Part shown: in pieces, positions 39,159-41,162 of the stretch | How positions within the stretch are numbered: the stretch's first letter is position 1 | Layout: each line of letters begins with the position of its first letter | Origin: Escherichia coli | GTDB lineage: Bacteria; Pseudomonadota; Gammaproteobacteria; Enterobacterales; Enterobacteriaceae | DNA length: 64,000 nucleotides | NCBI RefSeq assembly: GCF_003334785.1 | Contig: NZ_QOWV01000004.1 | Reading direction: 5' to 3' (one strand) | The notes under the pieces: model-generated | What the model was told of the DNA's origin: nothing | The model's input: only the letters and a program-made list of their open reading frames with translations | Databases searched by the model: none | Made by a program: the position numbers and the translations under genes

Positions 39159-39392
39159 ATTCTTCTCCCCTCATAGGCGACGAATAGCATTTTGTGTTGA
39201 GGATCACAAAACGAATAATTGCTGATCGCCGCGATAAGGTCAGACAAAGACAACAAGGGAAATTTTCACAGAGCTTTTGATCGGCGTAGGCCACAGAATG
39301 TTGCTTCGTTTACTGTAACGCCGGGTAAATGAGCGTTTTTTGATAGTGCGAAAGAACCCTGCGAGGAAAATAAGCATCTATTATTGTTTGTC

Positions 39393-39953
39393 ATGATGAC
39401 AAGGCAGGCATCAATGAAAGGCTTCCCAATTGCGCATATTTTTCACCCTTCAATCCCGCCAATGCACGCAGTGGTTAACAATCACAATAGAAATATTGAT
39501 TATTGGACGGTAAAAAGAAAGTTTGCAGAAATTGTCTCCACCAATGACGTTAATAAAATTTACAGTATAAGTAATGAACTGCGGAGAGTATTATCTGCAA
39601 TAACTGCATTGAATTTCTATCATGGCGATGTTCCTTCTGTCATGATCCGAATCCAACCGGAAAATATGAGTCCATTCATTATAGATATTTCTACAGGAGA
39701 ACATGATGATTATATCATACAAACATTAGATGTAGGCACTTTTGCACCTTTTGGTGAACAATGTACTTGCTCAGCCGTCAATAAAAAAGAGCTGGAATGT
39801 ATTAAGGAGACGATTTCTAAGTATTGTGCAAAATTCACCCGAAAAGAAGCCATCTTAACCCCCCTTGTGCACTTTAATAAAACCAGCATTACTTCAGATT
39901 GTTGGCAAATTCTCTTTTTTTCACCCGATCATTTTAATAATGATTTTTATTGA
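39393..39953 (+). CDS. yhaB: Uncharacterised protein YhaB, about 186 aa, low GC
   Basis: ORF in the track (TTG at 39384); start uncertain among ATGs at 39393, 39396 and 39414; no recognisable domain. Confidence 0.55.
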   Translation: MMTRQASMKGFPIAHIFHPSIPPMHAVVNNHNRNIDYWTVKRKFAEIVSTNDVNKIYSISNELRRVLSAITALNFYHGDVPSVMIRIQPENMSPFIIDISTGEHDDYIIQTLDVGTFAPFGEQCTCSAVNKKELECIKETISKYCAKFTRKEAILTPLVHFNKTSITSDCWQILFFSPDHFNNDFY

Positions 39954-39974
39954 TTATTTATAAAGGATAAAATA

Positions 39975-41162
39975 ATGTTCCCTGTTTCATCAATTGGTAA
40001 TGATATTAGTAGTGATTTAGTCCGTCGAAAAATGAATGACCTTCCTGAAAGCCCAACAGGAAATAACCTCGAAGCACTAGCACCAGGTATAGAAAAACTA
40101 AAACAGACCTCTATTGAAATGGTCACTTTACTTAACACGTTACAACCTGGTGGAAAATGCATTATCACTGGTGATTTTCAAAAAGAATTAGCGTACTTAC
40201 AAAATGTAATTCTTTATAATGTCTCGTCTCTTCGTCTGGATTTTTTAGGTTATAACGCCCAAATTATTCAACGATCGGACAATACTTGTGAACTTACCAT
40301 TAATGAACCGTTAAAAAACCAGGAAATATCCACAGGTAATATCAATATTAATTGCCCATTAAAAGATATTTACAATGAAATCAGGAGGTTAAACGTAATT
40401 TTTAGTTGTGGGACTGGAGATATCGTTGATCTATCCTCTCTGGACTTACGTAATGTCGATTTAGATTATTATGATTTCACAGATAAACATATGGCTAATA
40501 CTATTTTAAATCCTTTTAAATTGAATTCAACAAATTTTACTAATGCCAACATGTTTCAGGTTAATTTTGTTAGTTCAACACAAAACGCCACAATCTCCTG
40601 GGATTATTTACTAAAAATAACGCCTGTTTTAATAAGCATTAGCGATATGTATTCTGAAGAAAAAATCAAGTTTGTCGAAAGTTGTTTAAATGAGCCTGGA
40701 GACATTACCGAAGAACAATTAAAAATTATGAGATTTGCAATTATAAAATCTATACCAAGGGCAACTCTTACAGATAAATTAGAAAATGAATTAACAAAAG
40801 AAATATATAAAAGCTCATCGAAAATCATCAATTGCTTGAACAGAATTAAATTACCAGAGATGAAAGAATTCTCATCAGAAAAAATATATGATTACATCGA
40901 TATAATCATTGAAGATTATGAAAATATCAAAGAAAATGCTTATCTGGTCGTCCCCCAAATTAATTATACTATGGATTTAAACATAGAAGACTCTAGCTCA
41001 GAAGAGTTACTTTCAGATAATACCCTCGAGAAAGACGAAAATTCTCCGGACAATGGCTTTGAGGTCGGGGAATATAACACATATGAAGCATATAACTCAG
41101 AGAAGCAATATTTTACCAGAGAGGACTATACGTATGATTACGACCTTTTAAATGCAATATAG
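39975..41162 (+). CDS. yhaC: YhaC, 395 aa, with about 10 consecutive pentapeptide repeats (aa ~147-201) and an acidic, Tyr-rich C-terminus; low GC
   Basis: ATG with AAGGATAA Shine-Dalgarno; pentapeptide periodicity read directly in the translation. Confidence 0.75.
   Translation: MFPVSSIGNDISSDLVRRKMNDLPESPTGNNLEALAPGIEKLKQTSIEMVTLLNTLQPGGKCIITGDFQKELAYLQNVILYNVSSLRLDFLGYNAQIIQRSDNTCELTINEPLKNQEISTGNININCPLKDIYNEIRRLNVIFSCGTGDIVDLSSLDLRNVDLDYYDFTDKHMANTILNPFKLNSTNFTNANMFQVNFVSSTQNATISWDYLLKITPVLISISDMYSEEKIKFVESCLNEPGDITEEQLKIMRFAIIKSIPRATLTDKLENELTKEIYKSSSKIINCLNRIKLPEMKEFSSEKIYDYIDIIIEDYENIKENAYLVVPQINYTMDLNIEDSSSEELLSDNTLEKDENSPDNGFEVGEYNTYEAYNSEKQYFTREDYTYDYDLLNAI

Follow-up and report, generated by a model that had tools for sequence, protein, structure and literature searches.

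We examined a 64-kb window of Escherichia coli DNA (the whole stretch that was analysed, 64,000 nucleotides), which is the tdc-yhaBC-rnpB-gar region, and found that the gene pair yhaB-yhaC behaves as a ~2.0-kb insertion (plus strand, between ~39225 and ~41197, both boundaries approximate) that is confined to E. coli and Shigella. One of its two products, YhaC, appears to contain a short pentapeptide-repeat β-helix whose inward positions are nearly frozen while its outward positions change. We hold with high confidence that yhaBC is an insertion restricted to E. coli, that YhaC has a repeat module, that purifying selection acts on it with a period of five residues, and that deep alleles and a deletion allele exist. 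The genes themselves and their foreign, H-NS-bound nature were already known; what this analysis adds, modestly, is the repeat module and its evolutionary signature, the edges of the insertion and the depth to which the alleles diverge.

The two genes stand out first by their base composition. With a GC content of 31.8% in yhaC and 36.0% in yhaB against 50.3% for the window, they are far more AT-rich than their flanks, as the original prediction, made from the sequence of this window, had stated. Of all 1188-bp stretches across the 64 kb, the one beginning at 39801 has the lowest GC content (30.7%; mean 50.3%, standard deviation 5.0), and the GC content at third codon positions of yhaC (0.278) is the lowest of all when set against 0.581 ± 0.079 in 36 open reading frames (ORFs) of at least 250 amino acids (z about −3.8). 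Far from being indistinguishable from its neighbours in GC content and codon usage, yhaBC thus differs from them strongly. The same prediction had an AT-rich islet starting at 39159. Composition and insertion bear out the islet, but the AT-rich tract itself starts near 38626, at the tdcA-tdcR spacer, and this spacer and tdcR are equally AT-rich (28.8-31.8% GC). Because the left portion of the tract is present and AT-rich in Salmonella and Citrobacter too, it is, judged by this comparison, ancestral.

To place the edges, TdcA orthologues were located in Salmonella enterica and Citrobacter freundii, their neighbourhoods were read, and the tdcA-garK interval was compared by blastn. Both genomes have garK, rnpB, tdcA, the AT-rich spacer and a CRP site, and both lack yhaBC; rnpB and tdcA lie 819 bp apart in Salmonella, 784 bp apart in Citrobacter and 3037 bp apart in the E. 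coli window. The region of the tdcA-tdcR spacer and tdcR (38652-39151) matches Salmonella at ~68% identity, and the homology ends after 39219 to resume only at the rnpB terminator repeat units. Given that both sister genera have everything around yhaBC but not yhaBC, the islet reads as a true insertion relative to them, lying between tdcR and the rnpB repeat array as predicted, with edges within ~65 nt of the predicted 39159 and 41162. Its right edge is marked, directly after yhaC, by an additional, degenerate copy of the repeat/terminator unit from the 3' end of rnpB (41198-41257; repeat families D3 and D4), and the deletion allele of strain CFT073 retains this stretch.

The CRP-type palindrome TGTGTTGAGGATCACA (39193-39208), the single match in the window and one mismatch away from the TGTGA-N6-TCACA core, lies ~213 nt upstream of the ATG of yhaB and immediately to the left of where the islet was inserted. 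Salmonella and Citrobacter lack yhaBC but conserve both the palindrome and the sequence around it, so the CRP site is older than the islet. A footprinting preprint reports a CRP footprint upstream of yhaB and assigns it to yhaB (PMC12871828); given the greater age of the site, yhaBC may have done no more than land downstream of it. A second CRP-type palindrome occurs in the window at 38689-38704.

Published work fits this picture of acquired DNA: a 706-bp promoter island within yhaC is bound by H-NS in all cited chromatin immunoprecipitation (ChIP) data sets and is predicted to be foreign by two methods (PMC3661553). yhaC itself is listed there among the H-NS-silenced promoter islands, or xenogeneic islets, of K-12, and in this respect the locus does not differ from what has already been published. 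Of the features expected of a horizontally acquired, H-NS-silenced islet, the composition and the absence from sister genera were found here, and the H-NS occupancy is taken from the literature (PMC3661553). The yhaBC DNA would be foreign in composition and, going by the published ChIP, covered by H-NS and hence normally silent.

YhaC (39975-41162, plus strand; 395 amino acids, isoelectric point (pI) 4.4) was called as an ORF and is named by the NCBIfam equivalog NF007262 (YhaC family; 890 bits, E = 1e−268). Its residues 151-200 (40425-40574, plus strand) read in register as VDLSS LDLRN VDLDY YDFTD KHMAN TILNP FKLNS TNFTN ANMFQ VNFVS, ten contiguous units that would make ~2.5 coils of quadrilateral β-helix. 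The original prediction had about ten uninterrupted units at ~40413-40578; as quoted they are residues 152-201, which agrees with this count once the standard register is used. All ten units have L, F or M at their centre (L/F in 8, M in 2), position i−1 is D or N in 7/10 and position i−2 is A, C, S, T or V in 6/10. A run of ten L/F/M residues with a period of five arose in 1 of 20,000 shuffles of the whole protein and in none of 20,000 local shuffles. The pentads at 146-150 and 201-210 break the pattern, so there are no further in-register flanking units. A working definition of pentapeptide repeats asks for at least eight contiguous units fitting (A/C/S/V/T/L/I)(D/N/S/K/E/I/R)(L/F)(S/T/R/E/Q/K/V/D)(G/D/E/N/R/Q/K), and YhaC falls within it, with ten contiguous units in which ~35 of 50 positions fit the consensus (PMC8145042).

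Comparisons with known repeat proteins point the same way. With hhalign, we compared an alignment of 15 YhaC alleles with a profile for which 17 segments of 60 residues each had been taken, in register, from two canonical repeat proteins, and obtained a match over residues 151-201, in register, at a probability of 91.4% (P = 9e−7); 20 local shuffles of the same YhaC columns scored at most 0.1%. A phmmer search with YhaC against a library of 1.84 billion cluster representatives matched three canonical A(D/N)LXX repeat proteins (E = 1.7e−4 to 6.8e−4). A PDB sequence search reached Np275/276 at a sub-threshold E = 0.03, and the sub-threshold pentapeptide matches from Pfam, NCBIfam and the PDB all fall on residues 151-198. 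Other weak matches of YhaC, to DUF5876 (E = 0.079), 5zf1 (E = 0.0067) and 3jyy (E = 0.057), were judged to be chance.

The pattern of change between alleles follows the same register. Across the 15 YhaC alleles the centre residue is invariant in 10/10 units and position i−2 changes just between V and I or T and A, while variation at i+1 and i+2 is seen in 7-8 of the ten units. The ratio of nonsynonymous to synonymous divergence (dN/dS) is 0.09 and 0.00 at the inward codons and 0.91 and 0.39 at the outward codons. Tandem Repeats Finder (TRF) detected no DNA-level tandem repeat beneath the module, which therefore shows no trace of having expanded recently. The periodicity, the profile-profile match, the phmmer matches and the contrast in selection between inward and outward positions, four tests on the sequence, support a real short pentapeptide-repeat β-helix segment in YhaC. 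To call YhaC a pentapeptide-repeat protein, as the original prediction did, is nevertheless an overstatement, because the repeat amounts to 50 of 395 residues and 2.5 coils.

Like the pentapeptide repeat proteins (PF00805/PF13599; Np275/Np276, Rfr32, MfpA, Qnr), YhaC has at least eight units, a central L/F, D/N at i−1 and a small or aliphatic residue at i−2, and its buried positions are likewise conserved while its surface positions vary. It differs from them in that its ten units sit within 395 amino acids, the curated hidden Markov models stay below threshold and the module is known here from sequence. The 345 residues of YhaC outside 151-200 have no detectable relatives. No signal peptide is evident by eye, and the N-terminus is Ser-rich and polar (MFPVSSIGNDISSD). 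A tandem duplication of seven residues, with RMDFFGY present twice, occurs in the N-domain of a Shigella boydii YhaC (P0026).

At the other end of the protein, residues 326-395 contain 18 D/E against 3 K/R, together with 8 Tyr, and have a pI of 4.05 (4.2 for the module), in agreement with the acidic Tyr/Asp/Glu-rich tail that had been predicted. The acidic Tyr-rich part (residues 326-382; 40950-41120, plus strand), delimited by composition and allele variability, is probably disordered. No other part of YhaC varies as much as this tail: 60-90% of its positions differ among alleles, its dN/dS is 0.60 against a 66%-identity allele (L002), and TRF reports an 18-nt imperfect tandem repeat within it at 41071-41111. 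The alignment of alleles also defines a C-terminal motif, (E/K)(D/E)YTY(D/N)YDLLN(A/E)I (41121-41159, plus strand), which is kept even in the 66%-identity allele (dN/dS 0.26 and 0.00). A 917-bp contig in which a tyrosine-phosphatase-like domain (PF13350) is joined to the YhaC tail (P0072) is probably an assembly chimera.

We next consider how widely the two genes occur. Among the 1.84 billion cluster representatives, phmmer with YhaC found one other full-length cluster, an E. coli allele of 67% identity (P0033), and the remaining matches were many E. coli fragments and the three repeat-only proteins. No homologues outside E. coli/Shigella were found by phmmer for YhaC or by word-indexed searches for YhaC and YhaB. 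Among the GTDB species representatives only two contigs matched, both mis-binned E. coli sequence in metagenome-assembled genomes (MAGs), namely CAUHML010000178.1 in a Bacteroides sp. MAG (L007; 99% identity) and JAIJJM010000798.1 in a Collinsella sp. MAG (L008; 87%); this pattern-based scan may miss distant relatives, and phmmer agrees with it. The phage genome collection held no yhaBC match, and no donor or mobile copy was found. Four 'plasmid' matches consist of three chromosome-sized records (~4.8-4.9 Mb) and one 354-kb non-mobilizable E. coli record. A YhaB-YhaC fusion (P0001) was also seen, on a 2-kb contig.

Within E. coli, yhaC is covered to 80% or more in 4315 of the 5426 complete genomes, in each case by one copy, on the chromosome. 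Another 1087 genomes fall short of 80% of the gene (all eight that were sampled hold just a ~105-bp remnant) and 24 have none of it. What is left in the CFT073 interval is the start of yhaB (~100 bp), 63 bp from yhaC and the 3' flank, and the locus was therefore deleted there rather than never acquired. One complete genome copy is 100% identical to the locus in the window and thousands are near-identical, annotated as 'protein YhaB' and 'YhaC family protein'. Intact YhaC alleles fall into classes of ~95%, ~88% and 66% amino acid identity to K-12, and the 66% allele occurs in the same tdcA-rnpB context. Nucleotide identity to this allele (L002) is 70-89% over 39150-41650 and 97-100% in the flanks, so that the poorly matching block coincides with the islet. 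Synonymous divergence (dS) is 0.52 in yhaB and 0.63 in yhaC, compared with 0.07-0.13 in tdcA, tdcB and garK. The dN/dS ratio is 0.24-0.25 in yhaB and 0.27-0.31 in yhaC, where it is below 1 in every domain; in the flanking genes it is 0.00-0.07, a constraint 4- to 30-fold stronger than that on yhaBC. yhaB and yhaC are constrained coding sequences under purifying selection, and their haplotypes are several times (~5x) older than the surrounding genome. Recombination between the classes has occurred, as one chimeric YhaC (P0030) resembles the ~88% class in its N-terminal part and the 66% class in its C-terminal part. yhaC has been reported among the top 14 positive-selection genes in 92 genomes (PMC9110714).

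The companion gene yhaB (39414-39953, plus strand) encodes 179 amino acids from its ATG, with a pI of 6.4, in an ORF that is open from a TTG at 39384; the product is an orphan protein (Pfam PF27690/UCP004546) confined to E. coli/Shigella. The yhaB stop and the yhaC start are separated by 21 nt and an AAGGA Shine-Dalgarno sequence precedes yhaC, from which we infer that the two genes are probably one co-transcribed operon. A published classification places yhaB-yhaC among the young, homogeneous operons with no known function (PMC12218254). A scan of the islet for sigma-70 promoters and terminators gave the same result as shuffled sequence (17 sites compared with 13.8 ± 3.7, and zero terminators).

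yhaB contains three slippage-prone homopolymers, A6 (39783-39788), C6 (39859-39864) and T7 (39915-39921). A truncated database variant (147 amino acids, ending ...KKSWNVLRRRFLSIVQNSPEKKPS) is reproduced by slipping −1 in A6, and a −1 slip in T7 gives a very common alternative C-terminus, ...FFHPIILIMIFIDYL (clusters of 3287 and 232 members). These slips could be phase-variation-like switching or simply decay. One yhaB allele (P0077) apparently leaves the frame and returns to it between A6 and C6. An NCBIfam match to Bud32 (E = 0.005) and a 'YHGD...IID' motif prompted us to consider YhaB as a RIO/Bud32/OspG-like mini-kinase. This reading was rejected, as the His varies between H, Q and K among alleles, the catalytic-loop Asn is missing and a PDB profile search with YhaB returned zero matches at E ≤ 10. 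Judged from typical kinase domain sizes, there is also too little space for an N-lobe.

We propose that yhaB-yhaC would be an E. coli/Shigella-confined operon that, once E. coli had split from Salmonella and Citrobacter, was inserted with the older CRP site on one side and the terminator repeats of rnpB on the other. YhaC would comprise a unique N-terminal α/β region, the ten-unit β-helix, a helical region and the acidic Tyr-rich tail with its conserved end motif, and may have no enzymatic activity and serve for binding or as an adaptor. A fast-evolving surface, formed by the outward faces of the β-helix and by the acidic tail with its docking motif, would engage a variable outside partner, perhaps a phage, host or competitor component and possibly a basic nucleic-acid-binding protein. 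Conflict with such a partner, we suggest, would let old divergent alleles persist while whole lineages discard the locus. We give this explanation as a whole, the demonstrated parts together with the suggested role, a probability of about 0.5; the binding or conflict role of YhaC taken by itself is tentative.

Several observations weigh against this explanation. The curated profiles score below threshold on YhaC (Pfam Pentapeptide_4 E = 0.14, Pentapeptide E = 6.4; NCBIfam penta_Alr5209 E = 0.12); the profile check is thus less clean than the original prediction assumed, but it does not refute the fold, as all matches fall on the same segment and the hhalign probability supports it. The AlphaFold models are unusable, both for YhaC (15-sequence alignment; predicted local distance difference test (pLDDT) score 31, and 23-28 in the repeat) and for YhaB (6-sequence alignment; pLDDT 34), and the domain picture of both proteins is for this reason drawn from their sequences. 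Neither experiment nor homology indicates a partner or an activity for YhaC or YhaB. In PADLOC-DB v2, YhaC has no family match and YhaB matches MkoA alone (E = 0.011 over 60 residues), and a search of PHROGs with both proteins found nothing; a defence role therefore has no positive support. The raised divergence extends to the non-coding DNA of the islet, and the high dS of yhaBC could therefore come from import of diverged cassettes or from a high local mutation rate in silent AT-rich DNA and not from balancing selection. Finally, the yhaB frameshifts, the deletion in ~20% of genomes and the insertion sequences in or next to yhaC (IS1 in NZ_AP024205.1 (H31) and IS621, of the IS110 family, in NZ_CM167682.1 (H21)) fit slow decay.

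Neutral decay is a serious rival, though on balance we consider it improbable. It would make yhaBC foreign DNA that H-NS silences and that has no present function, with a divergence reflecting relaxed constraint and a high mutation rate in silent AT-rich DNA. Besides the deletion, the insertion sequences and the commonness of the yhaB homopolymer frameshifts, the weaker constraint (dN/dS ~0.25-0.3 compared with 0.00-0.07 in the flanks), the equal divergence of non-coding islet DNA and the reported silencing (PMC3661553) would all follow from it. Harder to reconcile with decay is a dN/dS clearly below 1 over a dS of ~0.6, a span over which an AT-rich ORF of 395 codons would not readily stay open if it were unconstrained. 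Further, the inward repeat codons are near-frozen (0.00-0.09) while the outward ones change, the 66% allele still has the conserved C-terminal motif, and ~80% of genomes keep at least 80% of yhaC.

It is less probable still that YhaC is a 'fossil' substrate or effector of some type III secretion system (T3SS), with YhaB as a possible helper, acquired with or adapted to ETT2 or a system of the pINV or LEE type and now stranded and silent in strains where none works. The closest parallel in the way the genes behave in genomes is with icaR (yjgL) and icaT (yfdF), which have proved to encode Shigella T3SS substrates and which are AT-rich, restricted to E. coli and for the most part not present in B2 (PMC9241512). 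Like yhaBC, they are K-12-silent y-genes, widespread but mostly missing from phylogroup B2, and they too differ between strains (65-91% amino acid identity); their GC content (~35%, compared with 32-36% here), loss in CFT073-type strains and acidic products complete the resemblance (PMC9241512). Phylogeny confounds their joint absence from CFT073-type strains, however, and YhaC has no homology to YjgL and no similarity to any NCBIfam or Pfam effector family. The YjgL of K-12 (icaR; 5438-7252 of record L012) has ~12 tandem hexapeptide units of its own (LNNLQK, LNNPQE, LNDSQE and so on), which are unlike the YhaC repeat and show no similarity to it.

Pentapeptide-type β-helices do occur in the T3SS effectors SopA of Salmonella and NleL of enterohaemorrhagic E. 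coli (PMC8145042; PMC3013003). Both are modular proteins from AT-rich acquired DNA that set a β-helix beside unrelated domains and have no Sec signal, as is the case for YhaC with its Ser-rich polar N-terminus. Beyond the generic repeat, YhaC is nonetheless not similar to them in sequence, and it has neither a catalytic domain, HECT-like or otherwise, nor a T3SS regulatory box. In particular, there is no MxiE box, which distinguishes it from icaR and icaT: nothing within three mismatches of the consensus GTATCGTTTTTTTANAG occurs in the 64-kb window. PipB and PipB2 are further T3SS effectors with a pentapeptide-type β-helix. T3SS chaperones are typically acidic (pI ~4-5), and YhaB, at pI 6.4, is unlike them.

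A more elaborate reading, and a doubtful one, takes yhaBC as a cassette-like 'conflict' locus whose ancient classes (66%, ~88% and ~95%) would be kept by balancing or diversifying selection, with the surface of YhaC's mini β-helix and its acidic tail recognising a variable outside partner or being recognised by it. YhaC would then be a T3SS effector of the icaR/icaT kind or a single-protein phage sensor or decoy, and slippage in yhaB would serve as an on/off switch.

The original prediction had mentioned that pentapeptide-repeat proteins can mimic DNA. Qnr and MfpA do so with far longer helices that dimerise into a rod as long as a DNA segment. It is very improbable that YhaC protects gyrase or another DNA-binding enzyme as a mimic of the Qnr/MfpA/AlbG type: the protein is acidic overall (module pI 4.2, tail pI 4.05), has a pentapeptide module and is tied by a database annotation to the DNA-damage response (quoted in PMC9110714), but most of YhaC lies outside the repeat, nothing beyond the generic repeat matches the Qnr, MfpA or AlbG families (the only significant NCBIfam match is YhaC's own model), and gyrase-type DNA mimicry is unlikely because its ten units, ~2.5 coils or ~12 Å at an estimated ~4.8 Å per coil, fall far short of the long electronegative rods of tens of units in these protectors.

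The flanks of the islet are conserved genes and repeats. On the left are tdcB (36599-37588, minus strand) and tdcA (37687-38625, minus strand), followed by tdcR (38940-39158, plus strand; the 72-amino acid form named by NCBIfam). A published FNR ChIP site, AACAATTGATTAACGTCAACTTTT, lies near 39088-39111, inside tdcR (PMC1802558). Between E. coli alleles the dN/dS of tdcR is at least 1 (1.1 and 2.1, over few sites), and the Salmonella region that is 68% identical to it has no intact homologous ORF. tdcR is kept as AT-rich DNA and not as protein, which casts doubt on TdcR as a conserved protein activator. An E. coli TdcA of 496 amino acids (P0140) has a reverse-transcriptase domain (PF00078) between its helix-turn-helix and LysR substrate domains, suggesting insertion of a group II intron or retroelement in the tdcA of that strain.

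On the right, a palindromic element resembling a repetitive extragenic palindrome (GCCTGATGCGCTACGCTTATCAGGCCTAC...), seen by eye, lies within 41258-41390, between the degenerate repeat copy and a 113-bp tandem array of 2.5 copies (41406-41685; TRF score 504; repeat families D1 and D2). This array overlaps the rnpB 3' end and is outside the islet. It is followed by rnpB (RNase P RNA; 41663-42039, minus strand; Rfam RF00010, 318.6 bits), the conserved right flank, and by garK (from 42072, minus strand). The copy number of the repeats on the rnpB side differs among strains, giving rise to coverage classes of 86% and 92% in the genome matches.

Among 31 papers in which yhaB or yhaC is named we found no functional study, and in those consulted no mention of a pentapeptide repeat, which accords with the predicted statement that the function of the pair is not established. 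Our results make yhaBC a specific candidate for a host-, phage- or competitor-facing protein, much as icaR and icaT were rescued from obscurity. With a defined structural module and a fast-evolving surface over a frozen core, YhaC may be a more tractable member of the uncharacterised K-12 gene set. Should nothing come of the proposed role, the locus would still be a clean example of H-NS-silenced orphan genes persisting, diversifying and being lost within one species.

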